Source: Candidatus Parcubacteria bacterium (GTDB taxonomy: Bacteria; Patescibacteriota; Microgenomatia; UBA12405). From it: 64,000 bases of DNA. Position 1 is the first letter of the stretch. Each line of letters starts with the position of its first letter. The notes beneath the pieces were generated by a model that was not told the origin of the DNA, did no database searches, and saw nothing but the letters and a program-made list of their open reading frames with translations. The translations under genes were made by a program, and so were the position numbers. Of this stretch, positions 2,809 to 62,675 are shown one piece after another. The stretch lies in the NCBI GenBank assembly GCA_023443725.1, contig JAEZTF010000007.1, positions 2,391 through 66,390 of the forward strand, given 5' to 3'.

Positions 2809-3231
2809 CTAATTACTAACAACTGCTGATATTTTGTTTTCATAGCAATATTTTTTACCATCACAATCAAAAGATTTATCAAAGCAATCAACATCCTTTT
2901 TATTTTCTAAATTAGTCAATAAAGCAAAAGTTTGTTTATCATATTGTTTATAACAATATTGATTATCAATATAATTTTCCTTAGGAACTTGTTTCATATA
3001 AATATAATCTCCATCTTTCCATTCTTTTCCCCATAAACCATTGATCAACTTTTCTTCAGGCAACTTTCCATAATCAGCATAGTATAATCTTATAACTTTT
3101 GATAATTCATGCAAACTTGATTTTCTTTCTACATCTCTTGATTTTTTTTCCGCCAAATCAAATTGGCTCCAAGTAATCCAACTCAAAACGAAAACTACTA
3201 ATACTACAATAAAAAATTCTACTTTCTTCAT
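2809..3231 (-). CDS. Pilin-domain paralog lacking the prepilin cleavage motif (hydrophobic N-terminus only)
   Basis: It has the shared post-helix motif SRDVERKSSLHELSKVIRLYYADYG that matches neighbouring pilins. The N-terminus MKKVEFFIVVLVVFVLSWITW has no G-F-T-L-x-E. Confidence 0.45.
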   Translation of the reverse strand: MKKVEFFIVVLVVFVLSWITWSQFDLAEKKSRDVERKSSLHELSKVIRLYYADYGKLPEEKLINGLWGKEWKDGDYIYMKQVPKENYIDNQYCYKQYDKQTFALLTNLENKKDVDCFDKSFDCDGKKYCYENKISAVVSN

Positions 3232-3832: not shown

Positions 3833-4609
3833 TCATCTTATCAAATTAATAATTTGATCACCCCAAATCCAAGCTATTATTGTCCCAAAAATTAAAAATG
3901 GACCAAAAGCAATTTTACTTTTCTTGTTAATTTTTTTTAAAATCATACCAACTACTCCCACAAGTGCTCCGATTATAAAAGCTATATATATAGCCACCAA
4001 TATCTTAGGCCAACCAAGAAACAATCCCATAAAAACAGCTAACTTTACATCACCAAAACCCATTCCTTTTTTTTTAGTAATCAAATATAAAAACAAAAAA
4101 AAGCCACCAGAAATTATTGCTGAAATCAAATAGGGAATTATATTTGGTTCATCAAAAACAACTCCCAAAAAAGAAATAATTATAAGAGTTGCTACCGCAA
4201 AATCCGGCAAAATCATATATTTGAAATCAAATACAGCTAAAAAAACCAACAAAACAATTATTAAAAATCCTGATACTAATTGTAAGGGCGACTCTTGTGG
4301 TCGCCCAAAAAAATAATAAATCAAAAATAAAATTCCTGTCATTATTTCCACAATAGGGTAGAGTGTTGATAATTTTTTAAGACAACATCTTGATTTTCCT
4401 CCTTGTAATAACCAAGAAATTATCGGAACATTTTCATACCAAGATAATTGTTTTCCACAGAAATCACAGTGACTTCTATTGTTATTTTTTACTTTGAATT
4501 TATCTTTTTCCAATTTATATTTCCTAGCTACTCTATAAACTAACATGTTTACAAAACTTCCAAGACACAAACCCAATATAAAAATCATTGTTAATATAAA
4601 CAATTCCAT
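3833..4609 (-). CDS. pilD: Prepilin peptidase (A24 family, PilD/ComC)
   Basis: N-terminal zinc-binding cysteine motif CDFCGKQL...SRCC. It is a multi-TM protein with GFGDVKL, an aspartyl-protease-like motif. It lies between the pilin genes. Confidence 0.85.
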   Translation of the reverse strand: MELFILTMIFILGLCLGSFVNMLVYRVARKYKLEKDKFKVKNNNRSHCDFCGKQLSWYENVPIISWLLQGGKSRCCLKKLSTLYPIVEIMTGILFLIYYFFGRPQESPLQLVSGFLIIVLLVFLAVFDFKYMILPDFAVATLIIISFLGVVFDEPNIIPYLISAIISGGFFLFLYLITKKKGMGFGDVKLAVFMGLFLGWPKILVAIYIAFIIGALVGVVGMILKKINKKSKIAFGPFLIFGTIIAWIWGDQIINLIR

Positions 4610-4620
4610 AAACTAATTCT

Positions 4621-4647
4621 AACAAAAACCCCTCTTTAAAAGAGGGG
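4621..4647 (-). terminator. Rho-independent terminator downstream of the major pilin gene
   Basis: On the minus strand the stem is CCCCTCT..AGAGGGG with a 5-nt loop, followed by TTTTTGTT. It lies between pilA and pilD. Confidence 0.5.
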
Positions 4648-4670
4648 TTCAAAATCAAATCAAAAATATT

Positions 4671-5327
4671 TTATTGTGGTACACATCTAAATAAACTAAC
4701 ATTGTCTGTAACAGTAGCATACGTCGCATCTATAATTTGTTGATCCGTCGCGTCTACAATTGTCGTTGGTAAACCATTAGTTATAGTCAAAGCCTTAAGT
4801 TTAAAACCAGCTGTATTAGTTCTATTAACTTTAGCTTTTGGTACAAAACAAACATAGATATTATTACCAGCAGTAGAGGATTGCTTAATCAAGAAAAGAG
4901 TATTCTCTGGTTTGTAGTTAGCACCTATAATGGTATATTCCTTATTTAAGAAAGATGATTTCAATTCATCTGAGGTAACCAAAGCACCAGGCGTAGTTGA
5001 TGTTGTACATAAATCATTTTTAGTTGTAGCACTAGCATTGGTACATAAACCAAATCCTGCTTCATTAGCCTTACTAAAAAAAGCAGCATCCACTGTATCA
5101 GTCTCATCGTCCATCAAATCTAGCCAAGGATATGAATTTTTACTAGCATAATATCTCTCATAAGCTGATAGAACTTCAGCAGCATCATTTTGGACTTTTG
5201 CATCTCTTGCTTTATTAGTCTGTTCTATAGGATTAATAGTTGCCAATACTGCCACCGACAAAATAGCTATCAAAGCAATAACGATCAACAACTCTACTAA
5301 AGTAAAACCATTTTTATTCATTTTCAT
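4671..5327 (-). CDS. pilA: Major type IV pilin candidate (PilA-like)
   Basis: NGFTLVELLIVIALIAIL leader. Its position between pilC and the terminator is typical of a major pilin. At 218 aa it is the largest pilin in the locus. Confidence 0.7.
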   Translation of the reverse strand: MKMNKNGFTLVELLIVIALIAILSVAVLATINPIEQTNKARDAKVQNDAAEVLSAYERYYASKNSYPWLDLMDDETDTVDAAFFSKANEAGFGLCTNASATTKNDLCTTSTTPGALVTSDELKSSFLNKEYTIIGANYKPENTLFLIKQSSTAGNNIYVCFVPKAKVNRTNTAGFKLKALTITNGLPTTIVDATDQQIIDATYATVTDNVSLFRCVPQ

Positions 5328-5369
5328 TTTTTCAATAAAATTTTAATATCTAACATTCATTATTTACTA

Positions 5370-6581
5370 CTAAAATTGGGATGTCAAGTTGTAGATAGGC
5401 ATTACTACCGCCACCATCAAAAAAGCTACCCCTAAACCCAATACAATCATTATTAAAGGTTCAATTGCAGAAGTTAAAGATTTTACTGATTGTTCAGCCT
5501 CTGTAGCAAAATAATCTGCCACCCTTAACAAAACTTCATCTAATTTTCCTGTGGCTTCTCCGGTTGCCACCATTTGATTAACCACTACAGGGAAAATACC
5601 AGTTTCTTCAAATGAATTAGCAATTGAAAAACCTTTTTGAACTCTTTCAGCAATTTGTAAATAAGCCCGATTAAAAACTTCATTTCCTGATACATTAGCC
5701 ACAATTCTTAAAGTATCTACTAAAGGAATTCCAGCAGACAACAACATCGACATAGTTCTAATCGTGCTAGCTAATATGTTTCTTTGGTTTAATATTCCTA
5801 TTATAGGCAATTTTATCTTAAAATCATCTATTTTAAACCTAAATTTGTCATTTTTATATCCAATTTTAAATAACAAAAATCCTCCTCCAACTAATACTGG
5901 AATAAAAATCCAAAATTTAGTCATAAAATTAGACATCGACATCATTATCTTTGTTGCTGCTGGCATATCAGCTCCAAAATCTCCATATAAACCAAGCAAT
6001 TTCGGAATTACAAATACCATCATTATTACCACCACGACTAACATACCAATAACCACTATAATCGGATAAATCATTGCCCCTTTTACTTTACTTGAAAATT
6101 CATTTTGTTTTTCTAAAGTATCAGCTAATTTTGATAATATTTCTTCTAATACACCACCTTCTTCTCCGGCATCAATAGAAGCAATATATGCTTCACCAAA
6201 AATCTTCTTATATTTATTCAAACCATCAGCCAACGATTGTCCTCCTTGTACAGCAGTTAAAACATGATCAAGTATTTCAAACATTAAACTATTTTTAGTC
6301 GCTTGATTTTTTAATAAATTTAAAGCGTCAGTTAGGGCCAATCCTGAATTCATCATAGTCGATAATTGTCGTGTCAAATTTGACACTTGTTTTACTCCGA
6401 CTTTAGAAAATAAATTTCGAGATATTCCTCCAAGCAATGTCTGACTTTCTTCATTTACAGATAGAGGAATTAGACCACCCTCTCTAATAGATTCAATAAC
6501 TGCTGATTTTTCAGGTAAATCTACTACTCCTTTGATCAATTTTCCATTCCAGTCTTTAGCTCTATAAACAAATCTCGTCAT
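5370..6581 (-). CDS. pilC: Type IV pilus assembly platform protein PilC (GspF family)
   Basis: About 400 aa with two GspF repeats and three TM segments, and pattern matches to PilC/GspF (e.g. the LLxAGIPLVD-like segment). Confidence 0.9.
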   Translation of the reverse strand: MTRFVYRAKDWNGKLIKGVVDLPEKSAVIESIREGGLIPLSVNEESQTLLGGISRNLFSKVGVKQVSNLTRQLSTMMNSGLALTDALNLLKNQATKNSLMFEILDHVLTAVQGGQSLADGLNKYKKIFGEAYIASIDAGEEGGVLEEILSKLADTLEKQNEFSSKVKGAMIYPIIVVIGMLVVVVIMMVFVIPKLLGLYGDFGADMPAATKIMMSMSNFMTKFWIFIPVLVGGGFLLFKIGYKNDKFRFKIDDFKIKLPIIGILNQRNILASTIRTMSMLLSAGIPLVDTLRIVANVSGNEVFNRAYLQIAERVQKGFSIANSFEETGIFPVVVNQMVATGEATGKLDEVLLRVADYFATEAEQSVKSLTSAIEPLIMIVLGLGVAFLMVAVVMPIYNLTSQF

Positions 6582-7648
6582 AATATTTTTTTATTTCTTA
6601 ACCTATTATTAAAATCCAACGGATTTGAAGAAAAATTAACTGCTACCTCTTGAGAAATTTTTCCTTCTAAAACTAATTTTGCTAAATAACTATCCAAACT
6701 AACCATTCCAGCCTCTGCACTAGTTTGAATAATATTATCTATCATAAAAGTTTTACCCTCACGAATAATATTCTTAACGGCCGAATTACTCATTAATATC
6801 TCAAGTGCCGGAATCATTCCACCACCAAGTGCTGGCACTAATCTTTGTGATACTACTGCTGTTATTACCGAAGATAATTGAATTTTAATCTGTTCTTTGG
6901 CTCCCGACGGGAATACATCGATGATTCTATCAATTGTTTGAGCCGCAGAGTTGGTATGTAACACTGAAAAAACTAAATGACCAGTTTCAGCAATTGTCAA
7001 AGCCGACTGAATTGACTCTAAATCTCTCATTTCACCAATAAAAACCACATTTGGATCTTGTCTTAAACAAGATCTCAAAGCTCGACTAAAATCACCAGTA
7101 TCATTACCCAATTCTCTTTGAGAAATAATTGATTTATTAGATTTAATTATATATTCCACCGGATCTTCAATTGTCACAATATGACTATTTCTTGTCTTAT
7201 TTATTTCATCCAAAATTGCTGCCACGGTAGTTGATTTACCATGACCAGTCGGACCAGTAACCAAAACAAATCCTTGCTTTAAATTTGCAAAGTTTCTCAA
7301 TAGATTTGGCAACTGTAATTCTTCAAAAGAGGGAATTCTAGATGCAATTAACCTCAATGAGCAGGCTAAACTATCTTGTTGGTAATAAATATTAGCCCTA
7401 AAACGAGACTCATCAGTTTCAAAAGAAAAATCTATTTCTTTTAAAGAAGTCAATTCAGCTTTTTTCTTTTCATCAAGCAAAGATTCAATCATTTCTTTTA
7501 TTAAAGAATCTTCCATTTGAGTCATATTTGGAGCATTAACCAATTCTCCGTTTAATCTAAATTTAGGTACTACTCCTTTCATTAAGTGAACATCCGAAGT
7601 TTTATTAGCTACTGCCAGTTTTAAAATTTCTTGTAATTTTGTATGCAT
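6578..7648 (-). CDS. pilT: Twitching motility ATPase PilT
   Basis: 356 aa with Walker A GPTGHGKSTT, plus the Asp box and His box, and the PilT signature AIRNLIREGK-like motif (NIIREGK). Confidence 0.85.
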   Translation of the reverse strand: MHTKLQEILKLAVANKTSDVHLMKGVVPKFRLNGELVNAPNMTQMEDSLIKEMIESLLDEKKKAELTSLKEIDFSFETDESRFRANIYYQQDSLACSLRLIASRIPSFEELQLPNLLRNFANLKQGFVLVTGPTGHGKSTTVAAILDEINKTRNSHIVTIEDPVEYIIKSNKSIISQRELGNDTGDFSRALRSCLRQDPNVVFIGEMRDLESIQSALTIAETGHLVFSVLHTNSAAQTIDRIIDVFPSGAKEQIKIQLSSVITAVVSQRLVPALGGGMIPALEILMSNSAVKNIIREGKTFMIDNIIQTSAEAGMVSLDSYLAKLVLEGKISQEVAVNFSSNPLDFNNRLRNKKIL

Positions 7649-7689
7649 TTTATTTTTTGTTTTACTATTTACTACTAACTAATTACTAA

Positions 7690-9429
7690 TTAATATTGGG
7701 CCACTCTAATAACTTCATCAATAGTGGTCACTCCTTCTAATACCTTAACGTAACCATCTTGCTTCATTGTTAACATTCCTTCTTCCATAGCTTGTTTTTG
7801 TATATCCAAAGCAGCTGCTTTTTCAATAATTAATTTACTAATTTTTTCTGATATTGGCATTACCTCATATATAGCTATTCTTCCTAAATAACCAGTATTA
7901 TTACATTTTTCACAGCCTACAATTTTAGGAATAGTCATAGCCTTACCATCTTTTTTAAATTTATCTTCTAACAAATTATAAACAGGCCCTAAAGTTTTTT
8001 TCATATCATCCATTATTTGTGGCGTCATTTCCATTTCTCCAGCACAGTTTTTGCAAACTCTTCTCAAAACTCTCTGTCCAACCACACAATTTAATGAAGA
8101 CACTAATAAAAATGGTTCTGCTCCCATATCTAATAATCTTGGAGGGACTCCAGAAGCATCATTAGTATGTAAAGTTGAAAAAACTAAATGACCAGTCAAA
8201 GCCGCATTAATAGCCAAATCGGCCGTCTCAGTATCACGAATTTCTCCAACCATTATTACATTTGGATCTTGTCGTAAAAATGATCTTAATGCCGAAGCAA
8301 AAGTTAACCCTGCTTGAGTGTTAACTTGCACCTGGTTTACCCCTTTCATTTGATATTCTACTGGATCTTCAATTGTTACTACATTAACCTTTGTTGTTGC
8401 CACAATATCCAAAATAGAATATAAAGTAGTTGTCTTACCAGAACCAGTTGGTCCACAAACAATAATAATTCCATGTGGTCTTTGAATTGAATTCATTAGG
8501 TTCTTCAATGCTAATCCTCGTAAACCCAAGTCTGGCAATGTTGGTACTTTTTGTGATTTTTGAAGCAAACGCATTACCACTTTCTCTCCATAAGTAGTTG
8601 GTAAAGTAGAAACACGTAAATCCACATCACTCCCATCAACAGAAAAAAAGAAACGACCATCTTGAGGCACGCGCTTCTCATCAATTTTTAAGTTTGACAA
8701 AATTTTTATTCTAGAAACCACGGCATCATGGACATTTCTTGGAAGTAAATATTTTTCCTGTAAAATTCCATCAATTCTATATCTTACTCGAACATTTTCT
8801 TCTTGTGGTTCAACATGTACATCAGAAGCTCTAGACTTAACTGCATACTCCAAAATAGTTGATACAATTTTAGCCACTGGTGCTTCAATAGCAACTTCTT
8901 CTTGAACTCTCTTCATCTCCCGTTCTTCATCTTTTCTTTCATTCAATGCTTTGTTTACCTCAGAAGTAATTTTTTTCTCTCTAATATATTTTTCCCTAAC
9001 AAAGGCAGAAATTTGTTTTTCTGTCGACATCGATACATTTATCTTTAAATTAGTTCTTTTTTCTAAAAATTCTATTGTCTCTAAATCAAGTGGGTTAGCC
9101 ATGGTCACAAACAAAATTTTTTCTTTAGGATCAAAACGATAGGGGACTATATTATACTTTTGAGCCACACTTTCGGGTACTAAATTTAAAGCTTCTGGAG
9201 AAAAACCAATATTATCTAAATCCACAAAAGGAACTCTCAAAAAACTTGCTTTTGCTTTTATTAATTCATCTTCTGATACTAACTTTAATTCTTTTATTGC
9301 TTCTTCTTCTGTTTCACCAGTCTTAAGTTGTCGTAAGTTTATTTCTTTAGATTGATCAGAATTGATTAGTTTTAAACCTAACAAAGCTTCAGTTAAGTTC
9401 TTATATATTTTTGGGGCGGCATTATCCAT
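7690..9429 (-). CDS. pilB: Type IV pilus assembly ATPase PilB (GspE family)
   Basis: 579 aa with Walker A GPTGSGKTTT, a tetracysteine zinc motif (CKNC...CEKC) and an N-terminal GspII-like domain. Confidence 0.9.
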   Translation of the reverse strand: MDNAAPKIYKNLTEALLGLKLINSDQSKEINLRQLKTGETEEEAIKELKLVSEDELIKAKASFLRVPFVDLDNIGFSPEALNLVPESVAQKYNIVPYRFDPKEKILFVTMANPLDLETIEFLEKRTNLKINVSMSTEKQISAFVREKYIREKKITSEVNKALNERKDEEREMKRVQEEVAIEAPVAKIVSTILEYAVKSRASDVHVEPQEENVRVRYRIDGILQEKYLLPRNVHDAVVSRIKILSNLKIDEKRVPQDGRFFFSVDGSDVDLRVSTLPTTYGEKVVMRLLQKSQKVPTLPDLGLRGLALKNLMNSIQRPHGIIIVCGPTGSGKTTTLYSILDIVATTKVNVVTIEDPVEYQMKGVNQVQVNTQAGLTFASALRSFLRQDPNVIMVGEIRDTETADLAINAALTGHLVFSTLHTNDASGVPPRLLDMGAEPFLLVSSLNCVVGQRVLRRVCKNCAGEMEMTPQIMDDMKKTLGPVYNLLEDKFKKDGKAMTIPKIVGCEKCNNTGYLGRIAIYEVMPISEKISKLIIEKAAALDIQKQAMEEGMLTMKQDGYVKVLEGVTTIDEVIRVAQY

Positions 9430-9456
9430 AATTGTATATATAATAATAGTACCAAA

Positions 9457-10098
9457 ATGAAATTATTTCCGTCTACTATAATTGTTTCTCGATCAATTGA
9501 TCAATCTATTAATTACACTATTGAAACGTGCCAGTCATTAGGCCATAAATCCATAATAAATAATCCTGATCTTTTTTTGATTAACCAAGAAACAGGTTGG
9601 ACTATTGATCTTGTTCGATCATTAAAAAAATTTATTTCCCAAAAACCATTTTGCCACCAAAACAAAGTCGTTATAATATCTCAAGCCGACAATCTTAATA
9701 TAGAATCACAAAATGCTCTTTTAAAAACCCTTGAAGAACCAGGAGAGAATAACTATATTTTTTTAATTACTGCTAGACCATCAAAATTATTAAATACTAT
9801 AACATCACGATGTCATTTAATAAAAATTACTAATTTGGACAACAAAAAATCTTCAAAAGAGATTATTAAAATAACTGGAAATTTTCTTAAAGACACCTCA
9901 GGGTTAGAAGAACTTTATAAAAATAAGGACCAAATTCTACCTTTTTTAAAAGAACAATTAGCCTTATTACAACAAGACTTAATTAACAAACCAAGTACAA
10001 GAACTAGTCAAATTATTCAAAGAATTATTAAATCAATTAGTATGATTGAATCAAACGTCGACCCACGTTCAGCCTTAGATTTTGTTTTTTTGGCCTAA
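9457..10098 (+). CDS. holB: DNA polymerase III delta-prime subunit (short form)
   Basis: KTLEEPGENNYIFLITARPSKLLNTITSRCHL matches the delta-prime KTLEEP / SRC motifs. Confidence 0.7.
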   Translation: MKLFPSTIIVSRSIDQSINYTIETCQSLGHKSIINNPDLFLINQETGWTIDLVRSLKKFISQKPFCHQNKVVIISQADNLNIESQNALLKTLEEPGENNYIFLITARPSKLLNTITSRCHLIKITNLDNKKSSKEIIKITGNFLKDTSGLEELYKNKDQILPFLKEQLALLQQDLINKPSTRTSQIIQRIIKSISMIESNVDPRSALDFVFLA

Positions 10099-24435: not shown

Positions 24436-26388
<1,953 letters not shown>

Positions 26389-26392
26389 TAAT

Positions 26393-29065
26393 ATGACTGA
26401 AGAAAAAAATACCATTGTTAATGATGTTATAAGAACCAATAATAATATTGGCAAGATTCTAGAAGTTGATATTGTTCCAGAAATGGAAACATCATATTTA
26501 GACTATGCCATGTCAGTCATTGTTTCCAGAGCCTTACCTGATGTCAGAGATGGTTTAAAACCAGTTCATCGCCGTATCATTTATGCCATGAATCAACTTG
26601 GCCTTTCAGTTACTGGAAAGAATGTAAAATCTGCCGCTGTTGTCGGTGATGTTATGAAATCTTATCATCCACATGGTGACAGTTCTATCTACGGTGCTTT
26701 AGTTCGTATGGCTCAGGATTTTTCCATGCGTTATCTTTTAGTCCAAGGACAGGGAAATTTTGGTTCTATTGACGGAGACCCTCCAGCTGCTATGCGTTAT
26801 ACCGAAGTTCGTATGGCCAAAATGACTCCTGAAATGGTAGCTGATATTAACAAAGACACAATAGAAATGGTGGACAACTACGATGCTTCTACTAAGGAAC
26901 CATCAGTTTTACCTGTTAGAATTCCTAATCTCTTACTAAATGGTGCTGATGGTATTGCTGTCGGTATGGCCACTCGTATTCCACCACACAATTTAAAAGA
27001 ATTATGTGCTGCAATTGATATCATTCTCGATAAAGGTAATTTAGAAAAAGTTGAAGCAGAAATTGAGTTAAATAATATTCTCACCCCACCAAAAAACACT
27101 CAAGAAATGGTTCTTAGACCAGTTTTTGAATTAGAAAAACAGAAATATAACTTTGAAACTAATGCTACCATTGAAGATTTAGTCAAAGTTGTTCAAGGAC
27201 CAGACTTCCCAACATTTGGAGAAATTTACGGCAAAACTGGTATTTTAGAAATGTATAATACTGGTCGAGGAAAATTTTCTGTTCGAGGTAAAACTAATAT
27301 TGAAGAAACGAAGTCAGGAAAAATTAGAATTATTATTACTGAAATACCTTATCAAGTTAATAAAGCTGAATTTGTCAAAAAAATTGCTGACCTTGTTCGA
27401 GATAAAAAAATTATTGGTATTTCGGATCTTCGCGACGAATCTGATCGTCATGGTATTCGAGTTGTAGTTGAAATTAAAAAGAACGGTAAACCAAAATCTA
27501 TTCTTAATAAACTTTTCAAATATACTGCTCTCCAATCATCATATTCAGCCAATATGTTGGCCTTAGTTGATGGTGTTCCTCAAACTCTAAATTTACGCCA
27601 AATGCTACTTCTTTTCATCCGTCACCGCGAATCTATAATTCGTCGTCGTAGTCTCTTTGATCTAAAAGGCGCCATGATGAGAGCTCATATTTTAGAAGGA
27701 CTTAAAAAAGCATTAGATGTCATTGATGAAGTTATCAAAACCATTAGAACTACCAAACCAGACGAAGATGCTAAAACTCGTCTTATGGAAAAATTTGAAT
27801 TTACCGATCTTCAAGCTCAGGCTATTCTAGAAATGCAACTTAAAAAACTTTCTGGTCTTGAACGTCAAAAACTTGATGAAGAATATTCTCAAGTAGAACA
27901 AACCATCAATTATTTAACTTCCATTATTACTAAATCAGATGTCATGATTAATGTCTTAAAATCTGAAAATAAAGAAATTACCGAAAAATATGGAGATAAT
28001 CGTCGAACTAAAATTTATACTAGGGGATTAGAAGATTTTAGTGAAGAAGATCTCATACCTAATGAAAACGTTCTTATAACTATAACCAAAACTGGTTATA
28101 TTAAACGAGTTCCCAAAGAAACTTATCATTCTCAAAAACGAGGAGGAATTGGCGTCGTTGGTATGACTACCAAATTAGAAGATGAAATTGAATGTATGCT
28201 TTCAGCTGATACTCATGATGATCTTCTTTTCTTTACCAATCGAGGTCGTGTTTTTAAAACCAAAGTTTGGGATATTCAAGAAGGAACTCGTCAGGCCAAA
28301 GGTCAAGCTGTGGTTAATTTAATCAATATTCTTCAAGGAGAAACTGTTCACACTGTCTTAACTGTTAGTAAAGATAGTCAATCAAAATATATTCTTTTAG
28401 CCACCAAAAAAGGTGTTATTAAAAAAACTTCAATTGATAAATTTAAAAATATTCGTCAAACCGGATTAGCCGCCATTAAATTAGATAACAACGATCAATT
28501 AGCCTGGGCTAAATTAACTGATGGTTCTAATCAAATCTTTTTAGTTACTAAAAACGGTAAATGTATTCGATTTAACGAATCAGATACTCGACCAATGGGT
28601 CGACACACTCGAGGTGTTAGAGGAATTCTTTTAAAAGAAAATGACTATTTAGTTAGTCTTGGTATTGTCCCTCAGACTATTGAACAAAAAAGTAAACAAG
28701 ATAAATCATTCCGTCATTTATTGGTAGTTACCGAAAATGGAGTAGGTAAGAGAACTGATGTTTATCAGTACCCTCTTCAAAAACGTGGTGGTATTGGTGT
28801 TAAGGTTGCTAATTTAACCCCAAAAACCGGCAACATTGCTTCTGCTCAAGTTGTTTCTGAAGAAGATGATCAAGTAGTTTTAATCTCTAAAAAAGCCGTT
28901 ACTATAAAGTTGCCTCTTAAAAATATTCCTACTTTAAATCGAAACACAAAAGGAGTTATTCTCATGAGATTCAAGAATGATGAAGATAAACTTAACGCCA
29001 TGACAATTCTCAAAAAAAACGATGAAGATAATTCTTTAGAAGAATCTGTAAAAGAGAAAAAATAA
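26393..29065 (+). CDS. gyrA: DNA gyrase subunit A
   Basis: Active-site region [10 protein letters not shown], the GyrA-box-like beta-pinwheel C-terminal domain and the QRGGIGV motif. 890 aa. Confidence 0.95.
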
Positions 29066-29289
29066 ATTTAAGATATTTTTATAGTGATTAAGCGTAAACT
29101 TGCGACATTATAGGAGATACATCAACGATAAGTATAAATTAGCAGTCAGAAAACAAGCTTGCTAAGGAACTATAAAATATTAGTTTATCCCTAAATTAGG
29201 GTAAAAAAGACTTGTCAAGTTGGGTAGAGAATAGGGTATTATTACTTTCTAGAAAAACTGAGAAAATTTGGCCTACTATAGGTCATAAA

Positions 29290-30222
29290 CTATTGTTTGT
29301 TTCCACTATGAAATTTTTCATGAATTTCTCTTAATCTAGCATCAGTTACATGCGTATATATTTGAGTTGTGGCAATATTTTTGTGACCTAAAATTTCTTG
29401 GACTGATCGAAGATCAGCTCCACTTCGGAGTAGGTCAGTAGCCATTGAATGTCTTAATGTATGAGGAGTTGCCATCACTGGTAAATTAGCTTGTCTTACA
29501 TATTTTTTTACCAATCTTTGAACAGATCTCGAAGTCAACCTAACTTTTTCATCTTCTAAAGCAATTTCTTTTGGTCTTAAATCTCTAATAAATAAAGGTT
29601 TATATTGATCCACCCTAGATTTTATATATTTATCTATCCATTCGGCAGCTTGTTTAGAAATAAATACGACTCTTGATCTACCTCCTTTTCCTATAACCCC
29701 AAATTCACGAGTTCTTAAATTTATCTGTTCCCTATTAAGGGAGACTAGTTCAGACACCCGCAAACCAGTCGAAAATAATAATTCCAAAATCGACCTATCT
29801 CTCAATCCATTTTTTTCAGAATTAAGTGGTTGATTTAACAATCTATGCATTTGCATTTCATCTAAAAACTTAAGAGAATGATCTTTCACTTTTGGCACAT
29901 CTAATTTTTCCGGCTGCATCACTTCCATATCATTTTTTATTAACCATTTTAAAAACGATCTTAAAGCAATTACATAATATCCTTGAGTTACCAATTTCAT
30001 TTCTCCATTAACTCCCAAACACCTTGAAAGATACAATCTAAATTTTCTTACTGTTTCAGAATTAATATCATCAATTGTTGGTTTTTTGTTTCCTTCAGAT
30101 AAAAAGTTTATTAAAACATTTAAATAATGTTCATAATTTCTAACCGTTAATCTAGAACAATTTTTTTCAATTTCCAAATGTTCTAGGAATCTTCTTGTCA
30201 AAACGACTAAATCTTTTTCCAT
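29290..30222 (-). CDS. Tyrosine recombinase, XerC/XerD family
   Basis: C-terminal catalytic motifs HTLRHSMATDLL...GHKNIATTQIYTHV (R-H-R-Y) and the N-terminal core-binding domain. 310 aa. Confidence 0.85.
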   Translation of the reverse strand: MEKDLVVLTRRFLEHLEIEKNCSRLTVRNYEHYLNVLINFLSEGNKKPTIDDINSETVRKFRLYLSRCLGVNGEMKLVTQGYYVIALRSFLKWLIKNDMEVMQPEKLDVPKVKDHSLKFLDEMQMHRLLNQPLNSEKNGLRDRSILELLFSTGLRVSELVSLNREQINLRTREFGVIGKGGRSRVVFISKQAAEWIDKYIKSRVDQYKPLFIRDLRPKEIALEDEKVRLTSRSVQRLVKKYVRQANLPVMATPHTLRHSMATDLLRSGADLRSVQEILGHKNIATTQIYTHVTDARLREIHEKFHSGNKQ

Positions 30223-31034
30223 ACTTAAATCTTAGCAGATTAAAGCTAAAAGTAATCGACTAAAACAAAAACATTCGTTTTAGAGGCTCTGGTGAAGTCT
30301 TAGGTTCAAATTGCCTATCTTTAGGTTAAAACATCTACAGGAGGGGACTTGGATCAATTAAGGGGAGTCAATTTATTAAAAATAAAGCTGGCTAATAAAT
30401 TTAAAGGAGAAAACAAAACCAGGTGATAAAAGTCATTTTTTTAAATATAAAAATAATTAAAAACTAATAAGGGTAATTAAAAACCAAAAATTAGAAAAAA
30501 TTATTTTTCTTAAAACTCCCATCCCCTCGCTTCAAAACTTTAACAGAGTCGTAAAAGATACATTGTGCGACATAGTATATAAGCTCACCCACCATCAGGC
30601 GATAGCAGTCATTGTTTGTTTAACAATTACTCTAATTAATCCTTTAATACTTTATTAATCCTTTTAATTATTAACCATCAACTCTACTTCCACCCCTTCT
30701 CTAGGCGTACAGTTTGATATACTTACCAGGCATAAACTTATCCACAGAGACTATATCATACTATATCAACTCTCTACCCGTGAAAATTATAGGATATATT
30801 GTGAAAATAATTATAGGATATATATTATAGGACTCTCCCCTTCTTCATCCATCTACTATTATTTTTTATTAGCCAATAATCCTTTTATTCTTAAATCATC
30901 AACTACACTTCATAAGTTATTACATCTAATTTGTGACTATCAACAATAGTAATCAAATATTCAATCAATTCCCTAGTCTCCCCTTTCTAAAATAGAAGAA
31001 AATTATACCTAAAGATTGGCAAAATTCACCTATT
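30223..31034. other. ~810 bp ORF-free, repeat-rich non-coding region (function unknown)
   Basis: No ORF of 60 aa or more in any frame. It contains a perfect DnaA-box 9-mer TTATCCACA (30738-30746), a tandem ~24-bp repeat tgaaaat(a)attataggatatat x2.5 (30781-30833), a degenerate ~36-bp direct repeat at 30657 and 30878, and recurrent CTCCCCTT-type motifs. Confidence 0.5.
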
Positions 31035-32792
31035 TCATATAAATCCACCTACTTGAATACCCCAAAGTTTCTTATATATACCACTTTTAATCTTTATTAA
31101 AGTTGTATGTTTACCATCTTCTACTATTTTCTTATCATGAATAACCACTATTCTGTCTACTTTTCTAATAGTTGATAATCTATGAGCTATTACTATCACT
31201 GTTTTGTCTCTCATTAACTTATCTAAAGATGCTTGAATATATTTTTCTGATTCTGAATCAAGACTAGATGTTGCCTCATCCAACACTAAAATTGGCGCAT
31301 TGCGTAATATTGCCCTAGCAATTGCTACTCTTTGTCTTTCTCCTCCAGACAGTTTAATACCCCTTTCACCAACAAAAGTTTGATAACCTAATTCCAACTT
31401 ACTAATAAATTCATCGCAATGAGCTAATTTTGAAGCTTCAATTACTTCATCATCAGTTGCTTCTGGCCTACCATATCGAATGTTTTCCATTAAACTTCTA
31501 TGAAACAAGACTGGATCTTGTGGAACCATACTAATTGCTTCTCTTAAGCTTTGCTGAGTAACTTTAGAGATATCTTGTCCATCAATCAATATCTTTCCAT
31601 CTTTTAAGTCATACAATCTCAATAATAATTTGATTAGAGTTGTTTTACCTGATCCAGATGTACCTACCAAGGCTACAGTTTCTTTAGCTTTGATTTTTAG
31701 ACTAAAATTATCAATCACATTTTCGCCATTTTCATAACCAAAACATACTTTATCAAAATCTATCTCTCCATTCCTGATTATCAAATCATTAGCATCAAAA
31801 GCATCAGCAATTTCATGTGGTGTGTCAAAAATAATTGTCATTTCTTCTGCTTCTGCCAATCTTTCGTAAATTTTACTGATGATTCTACCAAAATCCCAGA
31901 CCATCATCATTACTGTCAAAATATATGATTGTATCAATACAAAATCTCCAATAGTTAAAATACCTTTATTCCAAAGTTTAATCGCAAAATAAAAAATTCC
32001 TACTTCTAAGATCATCAATAAAAAAGATTGAATACCGTAGAAAAGAGCACTTAAATTCCAAGTAAATCGTCTTAGCTTATGCAAATTTTCAACTAAATTG
32101 AAATAGTTTTTAACTTCATTCTTTAGACCGTTAAACAATTTAATGTTTGTATTATTAGTCACGGTATCTGCTAAACAACTACTAGTAGCTGTTTCCGCTT
32201 CACTTCGTTGTATATCGTATTTCAACTTATATCTAGTGAAACCCCAATTAATCATTAAAAATATTCCGATCCAGACCAACATACCTAAACCCAAATAAAT
32301 ATTAACTCTTCCCAAGATTATGGTAATTACTAAAATCGTTACCAAAGCCGGGATTAATTCATAAAACAGTTGGTCCGCTAAAACTTCAAAAGCTGAGACA
32401 AAACTTTTGACTTTTTTAACTAAAGAACCGGTAAAATTATTAGAAAAATAAGCAAAAGAATGATCATGTATATAAGTAAAACATTTAACATTTAAATCAG
32501 CCATTAGTCTTGATTCGTAAAAATTCAAAATATAAAAAGCCAATCTCCAAAAGATCCACCTGATTAGTTTTAAAATGGCAATTGTTAATAGTATTCCCAA
32601 TAATGCTTGAACTATTACATCTTTTGGTTTGTTTTCAGCTAAAATATTAAAAAAATTCTTAAAATATACCGGAACAATAGATTCAATTATTGTTGCACTA
32701 ATTATAGAAAAAACCATTATCGATCCTATCAGATGATATTTCTTCATGCTTTGCCAGTAGTACCATAGTGTTCTTTTAGTTTTATTTTTCAT
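31035..32792 (-). CDS. ABC exporter, fused permease and ATPase (MsbA/type I exporter family)
   Basis: Six-TM N-terminal half. The C-terminus has Walker A GTSGSGKTT, signature [14 protein letters not shown] and Walker B LVLDEATSSLD. Confidence 0.85.
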   Translation of the reverse strand: MKNKTKRTLWYYWQSMKKYHLIGSIMVFSIISATIIESIVPVYFKNFFNILAENKPKDVIVQALLGILLTIAILKLIRWIFWRLAFYILNFYESRLMADLNVKCFTYIHDHSFAYFSNNFTGSLVKKVKSFVSAFEVLADQLFYELIPALVTILVITIILGRVNIYLGLGMLVWIGIFLMINWGFTRYKLKYDIQRSEAETATSSCLADTVTNNTNIKLFNGLKNEVKNYFNLVENLHKLRRFTWNLSALFYGIQSFLLMILEVGIFYFAIKLWNKGILTIGDFVLIQSYILTVMMMVWDFGRIISKIYERLAEAEEMTIIFDTPHEIADAFDANDLIIRNGEIDFDKVCFGYENGENVIDNFSLKIKAKETVALVGTSGSGKTTLIKLLLRLYDLKDGKILIDGQDISKVTQQSLREAISMVPQDPVLFHRSLMENIRYGRPEATDDEVIEASKLAHCDEFISKLELGYQTFVGERGIKLSGGERQRVAIARAILRNAPILVLDEATSSLDSESEKYIQASLDKLMRDKTVIVIAHRLSTIRKVDRIVVIHDKKIVEDGKHTTLIKIKSGIYKKLWGIQVGGFI

Positions 32793-42085: not shown

Positions 42086-42187
42086 AAATCCATTTTATCT
42101 GATATAATCCCATTAATGTTGAATATAGTTTGTAAATCAAACCATCACCACACCAATTAAGTTGGTGGATTTCAACAGATAATCAAT

Positions 42188-42212
42188 CCGCCAACTTGGC
42201 GGGTTTTTGTTT
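42188..42212 (+). terminator. Terminator-like hairpin (CCGCC-aactt-GGCGG plus GTTTTTGTTTG) upstream of tRNA-His
   Basis: Read from the sequence. It is preceded by a second hairpin CACCAA-ttaag-TTGGTG at 42148-42168, with no plus-strand CDS upstream. Confidence 0.35.
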
Positions 42213-42235
42213 GATATAATCAAACGAAGTTACAT

Positions 42236-42313
42236 GGTGGTATTAGCTCAATTGGTTAGAGCGCAGCTCTGTGAAAGCTGAGGTTACCGGTTCAAGTCCG
42301 GCATACCACCCCA
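42236..42313 (+). tRNA. tRNA-His (anticodon GUG) with encoded G-1 and 3' CCA
   Basis: G-1 plus acceptor GTGGTAT/ATACCAC, discriminator C73, anticodon loop CTGTGAA, T-arm CCGGTTCAAGTCCGG, then CCA. Confidence 0.85.
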
Positions 42314-42417
42314 AAAAATATGAAAAATAAAATTAATTTTATTAAAAACCATCGACATACCGTGGGCACCAACACCGCGGGGTTCTTGGCCGCCTAAAAA
42401 CTTTTTTATTATTAATC

Positions 42418-42452
42418 AAATCCCCGCTTCCCCGCGGGGATTTTTAATTTTT
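42418..42452 (+). terminator. Rho-independent terminator after tRNA-His
   Basis: 10-bp stem AAATCCCCGC/GCGGGGATTT with loop TTCCCC, followed by TTAATTTTT. Confidence 0.55.
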
Positions 42453-42465
42453 AATAAAAAACAAA

Positions 42466-45693: not shown

Positions 45694-45701
45694 TAAGCCT
45701 T

Positions 45702-45956
45702 ATGAAACAACAAACTCATCCACAATATTACGATAATTGCCAAGTCACTTGTGCTTGCGGCAATAAATTTACCACTGGTTCAACTGTTGAAAAAATCGAA
45801 GTTGACGTTTGTTCAAAATGTCATCCTTTCTTTACTGGTCAACAAAAATTCGTCGACATCAAAGGTAGAATCGATAAATTTAAAGAAAAAGTTGCTAAAG
45901 GTCAAGCTACTGCTGCTACTAAAGCTGCCAAAAAATCTACTAAAAAATCAAATTAG
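45702..45956 (+). CDS. rpmE: 50S ribosomal protein L31 (Zn-ribbon type) with Lys/Ala-rich C-terminal tail
   Basis: CxC...CxxC, HPFFTGQQKFVDIKGRIDKF. Confidence 0.85.
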   Translation: MKQQTHPQYYDNCQVTCACGNKFTTGSTVEKIEVDVCSKCHPFFTGQQKFVDIKGRIDKFKEKVAKGQATAATKAAKKSTKKSN

Positions 45957-46038
45957 CTACTTCAAAACCGCTTCATTTTTATCCAAAAATTGGCGGTTTT
46001 TTGTTTATAATTAAAATTATTATCAACTCATTTAAAAA

Positions 46039-53565: not shown

Positions 53566-53640
53566 CTATCTATTATAACCAAAAATCTCCTTGAGAAACA
53601 CCCAAGGAGATTTCAAAATCTATTTTAGTTTTGTTGAAAA

Positions 53641-53895
53641 TTACTGAGTCACAAAAGGTAATAAAGCCAAATGTCTTGCTTGTTTTATGGCTGCAGCTAA
53701 TTTTCTTTGATGTTTAGCACAAGTGCCATTATAAATTCCAGCAATTATTCTTCCTCTAGGAGACAAGAAATCATAAAACTTATCGTAATCTTGCCACTTA
53801 GGATCATTACCAGACTTGCAAAAAGAACAGCCTTTTTCTTTACCTTTTCTTTTAGCTATCAATAAATTGTCTTTTTTACCTTTTTTCTTAATCAT
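53641..53895 (-). CDS. rpsR: 30S ribosomal protein S18
   Basis: YDKFYDFLSPRGRI...KHQRKLAAAIKQARHLALLP. Confidence 0.85.
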   Translation of the reverse strand: MIKKKGKKDNLLIAKRKGKEKGCSFCKSGNDPKWQDYDKFYDFLSPRGRIIAGIYNGTCAKHQRKLAAAIKQARHLALLPFVTQ

Positions 53896-53903
53896 AAAAA
53901 CTA

Positions 53904-54437: not shown

Positions 54438-54461
54438 ACTTGTGGAAATCCTCCATATTCT

Positions 54462-54752
54462 TTAAATTTTTAAAATTAAATAACGAATAATATTATTTTC
54501 TCGATTTAATAAGACATTTAATTCATTTAGTTTTAATGTAGACGAAGAAACCAAATCTAAAATCCAAAAATCACCAGTTTTATTACCTTTAATCTCATAA
54601 ACCAACTCTTTAATTCCCATATGGTCTTTCTTTTCAACTTCAACTTCTCGACCCGAAAGCCAATCAGTTACTTTTTTAAAAGCGTTTTCTTTTTCTTCAG
54701 TCTTTGGGTTTAAAACCAAAACTAATTGATATTTATATTTTTTTTCTTTCAT
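54462..54752 (-). CDS. rpsF: 30S ribosomal protein S6
   Basis: Conserved rpsF-ssb-rpsR arrangement, with YQLVLVLNP at the N-terminus. Confidence 0.8.
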   Translation of the reverse strand: MKEKKYKYQLVLVLNPKTEEKENAFKKVTDWLSGREVEVEKKDHMGIKELVYEIKGNKTGDFWILDLVSSSTLKLNELNVLLNRENNIIRYLILKI

Positions 54753-54794
54753 GAACTCAATAGATTAACATAAATTGTTTTTTTTAACAATATT

Positions 54795-57716: not shown

Positions 57717-57718
57717 AT

Positions 57719-57967
57719 TTAAAACAAACCTTCAAGTCCACCCATATCCTTCATTCTTTTTGCTGCCATTTCCTGAGATTTTTTCATCGCTTTGTTTATA
57801 GTATCTACCAATATTTTATTTTCTCCTCCATTAATCGATAGAGATTTTATTTTTTGATCACCGCTAACCACTACTTTTATTCCACTTTCTTCTACTTCTA
57901 TAGTTTCTGCTTCTATTGCCTTTTTTAATTTATAAGCTTGAGCCAACATTTTTGCTTTATCAAACAT
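57719..57967 (-). CDS. ybaB: YbaB/EbfC nucleoid-associated protein (short)
   Basis: Conserved dnaX-ybaB-recR synteny. 82 aa, helical. Confidence 0.75.
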   Translation of the reverse strand: MFDKAKMLAQAYKLKKAIEAETIEVEESGIKVVVSGDQKIKSLSINGGENKILVDTINKAMKKSQEMAAKRMKDMGGLEGLF

Positions 57968-58008
57968 AAATATTTTTAATTATTAATTTTAATTATTAAT
58001 TGTATCAT

Positions 58009-60663: not shown

Positions 60664-61353
60664 TTAGTCAGCACTTTGTAAACAATTGACTCGATCCAAA
60701 CTATTAATCACTCCATCGCTATTATAGTCGGCAACTGTTCCACTACATTTAGAAGCAGCCGAAGACGTAATTTTGGGAGTAGGAATAGTCGTATTTGTTA
60801 TCGGTGCAATTTTTCCACCTTGCTGTCGACAATAAATCATATCTACTGAATTAATTGTTCCATCTTTATTATAATCGTTACCATTTTTACATTCAGTTCC
60901 AGTATTTACTAACGGAGTCGAAGTTACTATTGGAGATGGTGTTGTTGTTGCCACTGTATTTTCACCTTTAGTTTTAAAAGTATAAGGAATGCCTCCATTA
61001 TCAAACACATCTTCACCAATTCGAATTCTATAATAATAAGTTGTACTAGGTCTTAAAGAAGTCAATAAAATTTTATGATTTGTGGTTGAATCACTTTCGA
61101 CCGACATCAGTACTAAATTAGCCGCAGTTGTTCCGTATTCTACTTTTGAAATAGATGCTTTATCAGAGATCCAAGATATAGTTGCTGTTTTTCCATCATC
61201 AGACGAAGTCGCAACTACTCCCGACGGCTCTACATCACTAGTAGCACCACTCATAAACGTTTTGATAGTTTTGATTCCAAATACACCCAAAACAGTCACT
61301 ACTAATAATACAACTAATATAACAACAGTCTTAACGTTTAACTTTCCCTTCAT
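60664..61353 (-). CDS. Membrane-anchored surface protein: FN3-like domain plus two Cys-bracketed dockerin-like Ca-binding repeats
   Basis: N-terminal signal anchor. FN3-like ISWISDKASISKVEYGTT...STTYYYRI. Repeats CKNGNDYNKDGTINSVDMIYC and CSGTVADYNSDGVINSLDRVNC match the DxNxDGxINxxD dockerin/EF-hand-like pattern. Confidence 0.5.
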   Translation of the reverse strand: MKGKLNVKTVVILVVLLVVTVLGVFGIKTIKTFMSGATSDVEPSGVVATSSDDGKTATISWISDKASISKVEYGTTAANLVLMSVESDSTTNHKILLTSLRPSTTYYYRIRIGEDVFDNGGIPYTFKTKGENTVATTTPSPIVTSTPLVNTGTECKNGNDYNKDGTINSVDMIYCRQQGGKIAPITNTTIPTPKITSSAASKCSGTVADYNSDGVINSLDRVNCLQSAD

Positions 61354-62042
61354 AAGAATTTCAAGAAAACTGCCGAAAATAAACTCATTAAGCCAACTGC
61401 AATTAAACCTACGGTCACTCCAGTGCTACCAGTTTGAGGTAGTGAGGTACTAACAGCAGTAGGAACAGCTGTCGATGAAGACGAAGTTGGTGTTGGAGTA
61501 TTAGAACTACCTGAGCCAATGACATATGAACCTGTCTGATTAGAGCTACAAGTAATAATATCCACAATAGAAGAAACTCCAATAATATTGGAATCTTTTG
61601 TTGATGTACTACAAGTATAAGATAGAGTTGCAGTCCCAGTATTAGTTGCTTTAAAAGTTAATTTAACCAAAGAACCATTAACCGTAGAATCACCAACAGT
61701 ATCATTAGCCCAACAACTATAACTTATAGTACCAGTTTCTTTTTTAATACTACACGAACCACCTCCTTCAACATTTGAAAAAACCATATCTTCCGCTTGT
61801 ACAGCTGATGTTAATTCTAATTTTGAAGAGTCATAAACCACTATACCATCAACTCCTCCAGTAGCTTCACTTCCAGAGTTAACACCCAAAGTTACATTAA
61901 AAGTATCATTAACATTGTAATTTCCAGTTGTAGGGTTGACAGTTAAATATGCTGTCGCATTCACTGCTTTCACCCCTACGGCTAAAAAAGCAAAACATAA
62001 AAATAAAATTAAGGCAGCTTTTTTCATTTTATTTAGTAACAT
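61350..62042 (-). CDS. Cohesin-like domain surface protein with LPQTG sortase anchor
   Basis: Signal peptide, a cohesin-like beta-sandwich pattern (GVDGIVVYDSSKLEL), a Ser/Thr-rich linker and a C-terminal LPQTG followed by a hydrophobic segment and basic residues. Confidence 0.55.
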   Translation of the reverse strand: MLLNKMKKAALILFLCFAFLAVGVKAVNATAYLTVNPTTGNYNVNDTFNVTLGVNSGSEATGGVDGIVVYDSSKLELTSAVQAEDMVFSNVEGGGSCSIKKETGTISYSCWANDTVGDSTVNGSLVKLTFKATNTGTATLSYTCSTSTKDSNIIGVSSIVDIITCSSNQTGSYVIGSGSSNTPTPTSSSSTAVPTAVSTSLPQTGSTGVTVGLIAVGLMSLFSAVFLKFL

Positions 62043-62646
62043 TAATATCTAACTTTCCACCAGTCCAACCTAATGATTTAGATGTACCAGTTTCTACTAT
62101 CAGAGTGTCATACTTCTTATCGAGACTATCATTACTCAACTCTAAGTTGTAATTCCCTTCTTCAAGTAGAGTTATATTAAAACTCAACACATTAACCTCT
62201 TTACCGCTCTCTAAGATTAATCCTTCTTTTTCTTCTATTAATAAAACATTGCTTAACATACCAGTCTCGTTATCTATTTTACTTATTTCTGGTTTTACTA
62301 ATTTAGAGTTGGAAACCAAATTAGTAATTTTAAATATTTCTGGATCATATTTAATATATGTCTCTAATCCATCAATAGTTTTGTTTTCAATCGAATTCAA
62401 AACTAAATCAATTTTATAAGTTTTTCCAAGTTTCATTTCAGTAGGAGTTTTAGAGTTCACTTTAAAGCCAAAATTAATCACTGGATCTTCTACAACCACT
62501 TCTTCTGTTGGATTTTTTTCTTCCACTTTACTACTTTGATCAACTTCAGTAGGCTTTTCTAAATTATTAACCAAAACAATACTCTCAAAAACTACTACTA
62601 TGGCAACTAATGGAATCAAAAACTTAATTAATTTATTGTTATTCAT
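62029..62646 (-). CDS. Cohesin-like domain protein, N-terminally membrane-anchored
   Basis: Signal anchor, with the IDGLETYIKYDPEIFKITN cohesin hallmark (x-YD-P-x-x-L). Confidence 0.45.
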   Translation of the reverse strand: MNNNKLIKFLIPLVAIVVVFESIVLVNNLEKPTEVDQSSKVEEKNPTEEVVVEDPVINFGFKVNSKTPTEMKLGKTYKIDLVLNSIENKTIDGLETYIKYDPEIFKITNLVSNSKLVKPEISKIDNETGMLSNVLLIEEKEGLILESGKEVNVLSFNITLLEEGNYNLELSNDSLDKKYDTLIVETGTSKSLGWTGGKLDINVTK

Positions 62647-62675
62647 ATTTTAATTATAAACATAATAATTTAAAT

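Follow-up and report, generated by a model that had tools for sequence, protein, structure and literature searches.

A conserved dif-like element upstream of xer as a candidate chromosome-maintenance locus of Microgenomates

Background

Recombination sites of the Xer type are spread over chromosomes, phages and small replicons, as exemplified by dif, by cer and psi, and by the attP sites of integrative mobile elements exploiting Xer (IMEX). In cer and psi, the Xer core is accompanied by ~180 bp of accessory DNA bound by PepA together with ArgR or ArcA. In Xer systems with a single recombinase, linkage of dif to the gene of that recombinase is regarded as a hallmark, and the architecture of dif has also been described for them (PMC5357621). 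Here we describe a locus of this kind in a 64-kb stretch of contig JAEZTF010000007.1 (assembly [GenBank:GCA_023443725.1]), below called the window. In this stretch, a Xer-type tyrosine recombinase gene (xer, 29290-30222, - strand) is separated from an ATP-binding cassette (ABC) transporter gene (31035-32792, - strand) by a gap of 812 nt (30223-31034) free of open reading frames (ORFs). The homologues of the recombinase and of CysS carry the name Candidatus Shapirobacteria, which belongs to Microgenomates in the candidate phyla radiation (CPR). The gap is probably a conserved chromosome-maintenance locus of Microgenomates that acts at the DNA level and has a dif-type recombination site as its core.

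To our knowledge, nothing is known experimentally about chromosome replication and segregation in CPR bacteria. No dif site described for Patescibacteria/CPR was found in our literature searches, nor was the sequence string of the present site.

Results

No other gap in the window is as large, the runner-up being 380 nt long, and the longest ORF inside it has at most 38 aa. An earlier note on this DNA had singled out a long ORF-free region next to a Xer-family recombinase, and this observation is correct. The core of the gap is a dif-like sequence on the xer (-) strand, AT GTCGCACAA-TGTATC-TTTTACGAC TC, at 30546-30573, of which 24 nt (30548-30571) form the invariant part. Its arms are inverted, 9-11 bp long, and surround a 6-bp centre. 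In the form GTCGCACAA-TGTATC-TTTT(A/G)CGAC, the core is present with 0-2 mismatches in all of the at least 35 Shapirobacteria loci. Lineages with Xer proteins 53-60% identical retain both arms and vary in the centre, which reads TGTATC, TGTTTC, TAATAC, TATAAC, TGATAC or AAAAAC across lineages; in two lineages (L041 and L087), the outermost arm bases are changed symmetrically from G..C to T..A. The consensus of 224 distinct sites is ATGTCGCACAA-TATAnn-TTTTGCGACAT, that is, 11+6+11 = 28 bp. The geometry of a dif site of ~28-31 bp, with two ~11-bp imperfect inverted arms and a 6-11-bp centre, is found in ATGTCGCACAA-TGTATC-TTTTACGACTC. With E. coli dif (GGTGCGCATAA-TGTATA-TTATGTTAAAT), the window site shares 15 of its 28 positions, among them CGCA.AATGTAT.TT.T.

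The earlier note had proposed a replication-related site with a single-recombinase dif similar to those of XerS or XerH. The general idea is the best supported one, but the best dif candidate lies elsewhere in the gap. The inverted repeat CTAAAAC-N10-GTTTTAG is present at 30260-30283, but apart from the window strain only the closest relative (L007) has it. We therefore do not regard it as dif or as part of the functional core; the candidate described here lies ~280 nt further upstream.

In all site-bearing chromosomal loci, the site precedes xer and shares its strand. Most Shapirobacteria have the two ~0.3-0.43 kb apart; in Levybacteria-type and other lineages the interval is 0.43-6.1 kb, and in an unrelated 51%-GC contig it is 82 nt. 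The genetic linkage of site and recombinase gene that marks single-recombinase modules is seen over 0.08-6 kb. In L020/L022, a 291-aa ORF is inserted between the core element and xer (~4100-5000), and in L337, a 1.61-Mb Levybacteria-type chromosome, trehalose genes (trehalase, S6PP-like, GT20 and glucokinase) stand between them (4327-9920). Element and xer are separable by up to 6 kb. Two side observations concern contigs of higher GC content, in which a recombinase ORF starts ~40-90 nt from the site, seen in the orientation of the site: an integrase ORF with 29% identity to the window protein in L242 (site at 3219, 59% GC), and a Xer ORF with 46% identity, beside hflX, in L304 (site at 13577, 51% GC). 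In Parcubacteria, Saccharibacteria and Gracilibacteria, a search with relaxed criteria in the vicinity of xer did not detect the site. We class the element as a variant of the Xer/dif theme specific to Microgenomates-type CPR and their mobile elements.

The 310-aa recombinase contains the Pfam Phage_integrase domain and a SAM-like N domain. Its best NCBIfam models are XerC (246 bits), XerD (243 bits) and archaeal XerA (219 bits), all under the equivalog cut-offs. The XerS model scores 133 bits versus a cut-off of 267, which, together with the length of the protein, places it outside the XerS/XerH clade (~355 aa). The nearest structure in PDB is E. coli XerD (1a0p, E=1e-40), and the catalytic R..HxxR..H..Y residues align with those of XerD, as they should in a cognate tyrosine recombinase. 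Across Shapirobacteria, the homologues are 70-99% identical.

The surroundings of the core are conserved as well. The order ABC transporter, gap, xer, gyrA was seen in ~19 Shapirobacteria loci, where the gap measures 800-1760 nt, and the order xer-gyrA-gyrB in ~35. At the nucleotide level, identity in the gap amounts to 70-86%, extends over 300-630 nt and is seen in ~35 related genomes, whereas the flanking ABC protein is only 61-73% identical. A nhmmer profile recovered the element upstream of xer in 36 loci (E<=1e-37), including loci without the ABC neighbour, and an alignment of 26 sequences contains several invariant blocks of 15-30 nt. The footprint of an integrated or decayed mobile element, one of the explanations offered in the earlier note, does not agree with sequence and synteny kept over ~35 species. 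We reject it also in view of the order ABC transporter, gap, xer, gyrA, gyrB, preserved in most Shapirobacteria loci, and of the absence of phage or transposon genes there. A protein-coding gene is rejected too: the stop-free stretches of the + strand are not conserved as ORFs, the invariant blocks show neither third-position variation nor codon periodicity, and there is no shared ORF.

On the xer strand, a block of short words (30710-30850) lies upstream of the core, and its words are nearly invariant in the 26 aligned Shapirobacteria. It comprises the word GGGGAG (30835-30841), three copies of TCCTATAAT (30786-94, 30810-18 and 30824-32), two of TTTTCAC[GA] (30779-86 and 30800-07), two of GATATAGT (30750-57 and 30760-67), and a DnaA box, TGTGGATAA. 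The last, read on the + strand as TTATCCACA (30738-30746), had been recognized as a consensus DnaA box in the earlier note; it is conserved in relatives, and the window has only 2 exact copies of it in 64 kb. The ~24-bp tandem unit described there (ATTATAGGATATAT repeats) also exists and is conserved in all relatives, even though it scores under the threshold of Tandem Repeats Finder (TRF). It consists of two exact copies of AATTATAGGATATAT with 24-nt spacing (30785-30799 and 30809-30823) and a third TCCTATAAT at 30824-30832. Its interpretation as iterons fails, however. Instead of direct repeats of 17-22 bp near a gene for a Rep initiator, the block holds words of 8-9 nt whose spacing and orientation vary between lineages, and no rep gene is close to the gap among the genes examined. 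As for the ~36-bp degenerate direct repeat, it can be found (35 nt, 30656-30690 and 30877-30911, 80% identity) but is not conserved; it is strain-specific or due to chance, because it falls in segments that are variable among relatives.

The recurrent pyrimidine motifs of the earlier note proved real and conserved. Of AGGGGA, counted on both strands, the gap has 5 copies, versus ~0.3 expected, and the whole window 24. A G-rich box, GAGGGGAT (30522-30529, - strand), lies 18-20 nt downstream of the core, and GGGG[AG] is kept at +19 to +21 not only in Shapirobacteria but also in Levybacteria-type and other chromosomal loci. Two AGGGGA motifs at 30341-30369 on the + strand, which read TTGACTCCCCT ... 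GTCCCCTCC on the xer strand, are inverted relative to three upstream copies, and TTGACTCCCCT is invariant in the alignment of relatives. The motifs converge around the site region; their strand bias over the window is weak (10 on + versus 14 on -).

In distant lineages, the words are found 160-640 nt upstream of the core, with changed order and orientation. The shuffled set in other Microgenomates comprises TGATATAGTnTGATATAGT, TGTGGATAA, two TTTTCAC[GA], TCCTATAAT or its complement, and GGGGAG. Because order and orientation change between lineages, the words are most likely DNA sites bound by proteins. They may be accessory sequences for recombination, as in cer and psi, a role that would fit their fixed side relative to the core. 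They may also be part of an origin, given the conserved perfect DnaA box, the two near-boxes TTTTCACR and the adjacent tract of 17% GC. In a single Shapirobacteria clade (L028-L033), to which the window does not belong, a conserved 24-25-aa hydrophobic ORF (...AILVT(N/R)WG*) follows a GGGGAG box; it lies ~700 nt upstream of the core.

Strong nucleotide conservation without an ORF could also indicate RNA. A long structured non-coding RNA (ncRNA) had been among the earlier suggestions, and one can imagine either such a molecule or several small RNAs transcribed from the TATAAT boxes of the gap, with the palindrome as an RNA hairpin. Several of these boxes are perfect and resemble the -10 boxes upstream of the transfer RNA (tRNA) genes in the window. 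Moreover, at pair 5/20 of the palindrome, each variant seen (U.G, C-G and U-A, window + strand) remains able to pair. On the antisense strand, the palindromic core folds better than shuffled alignments do (z = -3.5), and in the 560-900 block a helix between distant G-rich and C-rich segments adds to z = -6. Nevertheless, we consider this explanation very unlikely. At gathering thresholds, Rfam reports only three tRNAs in the whole window; relaxed to E=10 on 29000-31100, it gives chance matches of the small nucleolar RNA type and none for the gap, and there is no match on 16 site-bearing phage and metagenome loci. ARAGORN found no transfer-messenger RNA. RNAalifold on 26 sequences yields 21 pairs at -8.8 kcal/mol, with a double (compensatory) change in one pair only. 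Block-wise folding of both strands against column shuffles (blocks of 120-360 nt) gives -2 to -10 kcal/mol with mostly insignificant z. We reject a large structured RNA for this lack of meaningful conserved structure. The conserved blocks of 20-30 nt are invariant instead of covarying, and from lineage to lineage the words change places and direction, a rearrangement that no RNA fold would be expected to survive. Finally, the palindrome recurs in phages of 30-61% GC with unrelated flanks.

A degenerate-pattern scan of viral (IMG/VR) and metagenome contigs, in which counts refer to the matches listed, found the site in at least 120 viral and at least 120 metagenome contigs. About 16-20 of the metagenome matches listed come from CPR chromosomes, where xer lies downstream of the site and the words upstream. 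The other matches listed have 30-66% GC, no accessory words and no Xer gene; among the viral loci listed, 1 of 120 has a Xer-like gene. The exact Shapirobacteria core is absent from the viral contigs searched, and cultured phages and plasmids gave no true full-length match. In 38 of the 120 viral loci listed (L092-L211), the site lies directly upstream of the genes for the small and large terminase subunits, and in many terminase-linked loci, motifs ACCCCTGTTA / TAACAGGGGT stand on either side of it. Theoretically, a position near packaging genes would permit terminally redundant DNA to be cyclised, which is the role of lox in P1. One metagenome contig, L251 (JGI1221J13441_10002443), is made up of a 2,398-bp unit repeated identically three times in tandem and represents a small circular element. 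The unit contains a dif-like site, G-rich boxes and a gene for a 176-aa helix-turn-helix protein; no recombinase, recognisable Rep or Rep/HUH gene was seen in it.

The proximity to terminase genes and the presence on a 2.4-kb circle may raise the question of whether the palindrome is a site of phage or plasmid type (pac or cos, a rolling-circle origin nicked by Rep, or an attB hot spot) and not the substrate of the adjacent Xer. Rolling-circle replication, mentioned for some genomes (PMC7111523), would also produce a monotonic skew of the kind discussed below. We consider such a role of the palindrome very unlikely, however. The pac, cos and Rep nick sites are specific to lineages, so that invariance over hosts of 30-66% GC would be unexpected, and a conserved host enzyme is the better common denominator. 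The 2.4-kb circle lacks a visible Rep/HUH gene, no prophage genes flank the chromosomal site, and the linkage to xer is tight and fixed in orientation in several independent gene orders. These observations are more consistent with a dif-type site used by the host recombinase.

The + strand of the window is composed of 12.4% G and 18.3% C, with A ~ T. Its GC skew at third codon positions (GC3 skew) is negative in all ~70 genes irrespective of their orientation, with values of -0.40 to the left and -0.45 to the right of the site. No shift point of GC skew, at which a classical dif would be located, is present within +/-30 kb. Because the GC3 skew never switches and no dnaA was found, there is neither a classical origin nor a classical terminus within +/-30 kb. 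The earlier note had considered both, and the missing GC3 skew switch anywhere in the window speaks against them. It had pointed to one consensus DnaA box; the gap contains this one strict box and no cluster. Relaxed boxes (TTWTNCACA, <=1 mismatch) are not enriched, with 2 in the 0.8-kb gap versus a window average of 3.1/kb. Three properties of oriC were looked for at the site without success: a cluster of DnaA boxes, a sign change of the skew, and adjacency of dnaA/dnaN. No DnaA signature occurs in the window or in the ~213 loci scanned; there is no dnaA/dnaN among 28 window ORFs scanned, including every ORF of at least 339 aa outside 32-42 kb, nor dnaA in the ~10 kb of syntenic sequence of relatives past the right end of the window. 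No conserved 13-mer or DnaA-trio pattern was recognised by inspection near the boxes. We reject a classical oriC or terminus here in view of GC and GC3 skew, DnaA-box counts and the lack of dnaA. The position of xer in contigs of 0.87-1.6 Mb is uninformative, as the start points of contigs are arbitrary.

These results should be seen in the light of related genomes. In three complete Microgenomates genomes (Ca. Chazhemtobacterium, Collierbacteria and Beckwithbacteria), G and C are unequally distributed between the strands, and the cumulative skew falls monotonically over the entire genome (PMC7143001). An origin and a terminus close together, or unidirectional (theta) replication, were suggested as the reason, with neither origin nor terminus located (PMC7143001). 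In unidirectionally replicating Pseudoalteromonas chromids, dif2 is found 4-27 kb from ori2 (PMC7858055). If Shapirobacteria replicate likewise, the missing skew switch at the site is expected, not contradictory; a monotonic skew throughout Shapirobacteria genomes would be an extrapolation from these related ones. The earlier note had stated that skew extrema elsewhere, along with no conservation of the region, would argue against a role in replication. We found no sign change, and the region is conserved in relatives; the skew part of this test loses its force because related Microgenomates show monotonic skew without any extremum (PMC7143001). In the 1.61-Mb Levybacteria chromosome, the element is situated in a region of almost no G/C disparity. 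Which strand is the leading one is uncertain, because the three tRNA genes of the window (14380, 38223 and 42237) are all on the C-rich strand, as are, in Ch65, the rRNA genes too.

A bolder version, which extends the chromosome-maintenance reading rather than excluding it, would make the locus the joint origin and terminus of a unidirectionally replicated chromosome. The fork would leave from and return to the conserved 0.8-kb locus, and phages would copy the dif core for the host recombinase. An initiator platform with the DnaA box and an AT-rich tract would lie no more than a few hundred bp from the dif-type site and the recombinase gene. The strand disparity and uniformly negative GC3 skew in the window, the monotonic skew of the three complete genomes (PMC7143001) and the closeness of dif2 and ori2 in the chromids (PMC7858055) are all consistent with this possibility. 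The same applies to the perfect DnaA box, conserved across Microgenomates beside two TTTTCACR words 1-2 positions off the relaxed consensus, to the tract of 17% GC adjoining the site, and to the replication genes within the window (gyrB, gyrA, ligA, dnaB and dnaX). We nonetheless regard it as doubtful, for the strict DnaA box is single and relaxed boxes are not enriched, dnaA is missing from the window, from every locus and from ~10 kb beyond the right end in relatives, and no DnaA-trio pattern is recognisable by inspection. Furthermore, genome-wide monotonic skew is known from related Microgenomates, not from Shapirobacteria, and the element of the 1.61-Mb Levybacteria chromosome lies where G/C disparity is almost nil.

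The remaining parts of the gap and its neighbourhood are as follows. A very AT-rich tract (17% GC, 30373-30515), different in sequence between species, includes a weak period-10 repeat found by TRF at 30448-30483; a second AT-rich tract (29% GC) spans 30600-30700. According to the alignment of relatives, a conserved block at 30290-30330 (- strand) contains the palindrome CCTAAAGATAGG (30314-30325) followed by TCACCAGAGCC. Palindromes of this type, CCTA-N3-5-TAGG, recur at 29190-29200 and 29272-29282, with a degenerate copy at 31007-31032. An extended -10-like sequence, TGCTAAGAT (30229-30237, - strand), lies 6 nt ahead of the xer ATG and reads TGnTAAGAT in most relatives. A -10-like sequence so near the ATG, kept in relatives and with no Shine-Dalgarno sequence, suggests that the xer mRNA is leaderless. 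A general promoter and terminator scan gave results no better than chance.

The extended -10 ahead of the xer ATG and the conserved CCTA-N4-TAGG palindromes nearby would also be expected if the gap were a long promoter/operator region for xer, perhaps also for downstream genes, with the palindrome as operator. Among the explanations considered, this is the least probable, since the core and the words remain conserved in spite of 1-6 kb of unrelated genes before xer (L020/L022, L039, L041, L043 and L337), and the site is present in hundreds of contigs without xer.

On the other side of xer lie gyrA (26393-29065, + strand) and gyrB (24448-26388, + strand). The 224-nt spacer between gyrA and xer (29066-29289) is conserved in the alignment of 28 loci; on the - strand, it contains CCTATAGT and the palindrome CCCTAATTTAGGG. 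It also includes a hairpin, TTAGCA-N15-TGCTAA (29139-29165), and a fourth copy of TCCTATAAT (29107-29115). Thus, 4 of the 5 exact TCCTATAAT copies of the window flank xer, every one of them on the - strand. Elsewhere in the window, further intergenic gaps of 290-380 nt are seen at 42086-42465, 45694-46038, 53566-53903, 54438-54794 and 57717-58008. Some of them may harbour short genes; genes for a small ribosomal protein and SSB are annotated in relatives near 53.9-54.8 kb. Cohesin- and dockerin-domain proteins are encoded at 60664-63929, the evidence for the cohesin coming from neighbouring genes in relatives.

Discussion

We propose a dif-type site from what was observed on the architecture of the element, the pattern of its conservation, the linkage to xer, the range of its carriers and the lack of RNA structure. 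Also in its favour, the site occurs once within the 64 kb of the window and once in each locus of 8-21 kb. In the model that we favour, the single adjacent Xer recombinase would bind the core as a pair of monomers per site, and strand exchange within the 6-bp centre would resolve chromosome dimers. The flanking words (TCCTATAAT, TTTTCACR, GATATAGT, the DnaA box and GGGGAG) would bind accessory or architectural proteins, analogously to cer and psi. Phages of these hosts and small circular elements carry the site and presumably rely on the recombinase of the host to cyclise, to resolve multimers or to integrate.

Several points weigh against this model. First, the GC3 skew keeps one sign through the window, and the xer strand is G-rich on both sides of the site in ~30 other loci, whereas a classical dif is found within 3% of genome length of the GC-skew switch (PMC3025954). 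Second, the copies of the site on phages and plasmids occur without accessory words, which also argues against a recombination-accessory role of these words; because mobile copies lack them, the words appear to be unneeded for the role of the site on mobile elements. Third, no convincing second copies and no integration event, that is, two sites flanking an insert, were found. Fourth, in the recombinase, the beta-hairpin Lys of XerD (GKGNKER) aligns with Arg (GKGGRSR), and the RQ..QQ motif by which XerD contacts FtsK-gamma is unconserved, reading RE..EK. Finally, binding by the recombinase, the role in dimer resolution and the function of the accessory words are predictions from sequence.

A defined 28-bp site with its cognate recombinase is a directly testable system, and the site can serve as a marker to find CPR phages and plasmids in metagenomes. 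The locus also provides an anchor for the published puzzle of Microgenomates genomes in which the GC skew never changes sign; a possible link between the element and the monotonic strand asymmetry of these genomes is potentially important. Should the locus prove to be an origin as well, no earlier candidate would exist for a primary bacterial chromosome that replicates unidirectionally.

Among known systems, the closest parallels are XerS/difSL of streptococci and lactococci and XerH/difH of Helicobacter and Campylobacter, in which, like here, one recombinase gene is linked to an imperfect palindrome as a module (PMC5357621). The recombinase described here differs from theirs in being 310 aa long and XerC/XerD/XerA-like, and the centre of the site is 6 bp compared with 11 bp in difSL. 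Furthermore, in most lineages 0.3-6 kb of conserved accessory DNA precede xer, and there is no skew switch. The classical XerCD/dif system of E. coli and its B. subtilis counterpart (CodV/RipX and Bsdif) resemble the present one in the 28-bp site of 11+6+11, in the AT-rich TGTAT/TATAT centre and in XerD as the nearest structure. In contrast to them, we find apparently one recombinase, near-symmetric arms, no skew shift, and no conservation of the FtsK-gamma motif of XerD.

The likeness to cer and psi is of another kind: conserved DNA, most likely bound by proteins, extends for a few hundred bp to one side of the core, and a related core resides on a small circular replicon. However, the accessory block here is chromosomal and absent from the mobile copies, and one of its words is a DnaA box. 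IMEX and phages that use the host Xer (CTXphi, VGJphi and TLCphi) likewise carry a dif-like site without a recombinase of their own, as do the viral contigs found here (a Xer-like gene in 1 of the 120 listed). The carriers in our case are tailed-phage-like contigs with terminases, not filamentous phages, and no copy flanked by two sites was found. In P1, lox is close to pac, and the terminase-adjacent site recalls the Cre-lox cyclisation of that phage. Finally, the Pseudoalteromonas chromids and the Microgenomates with monotonic skew share with the window a strong G/C disparity without sign change and, in the chromids, a dif-type site without a skew switch. The cited CPR study located no origin, terminus or dif (PMC7143001), and the role of the present locus as an origin is conjecture.

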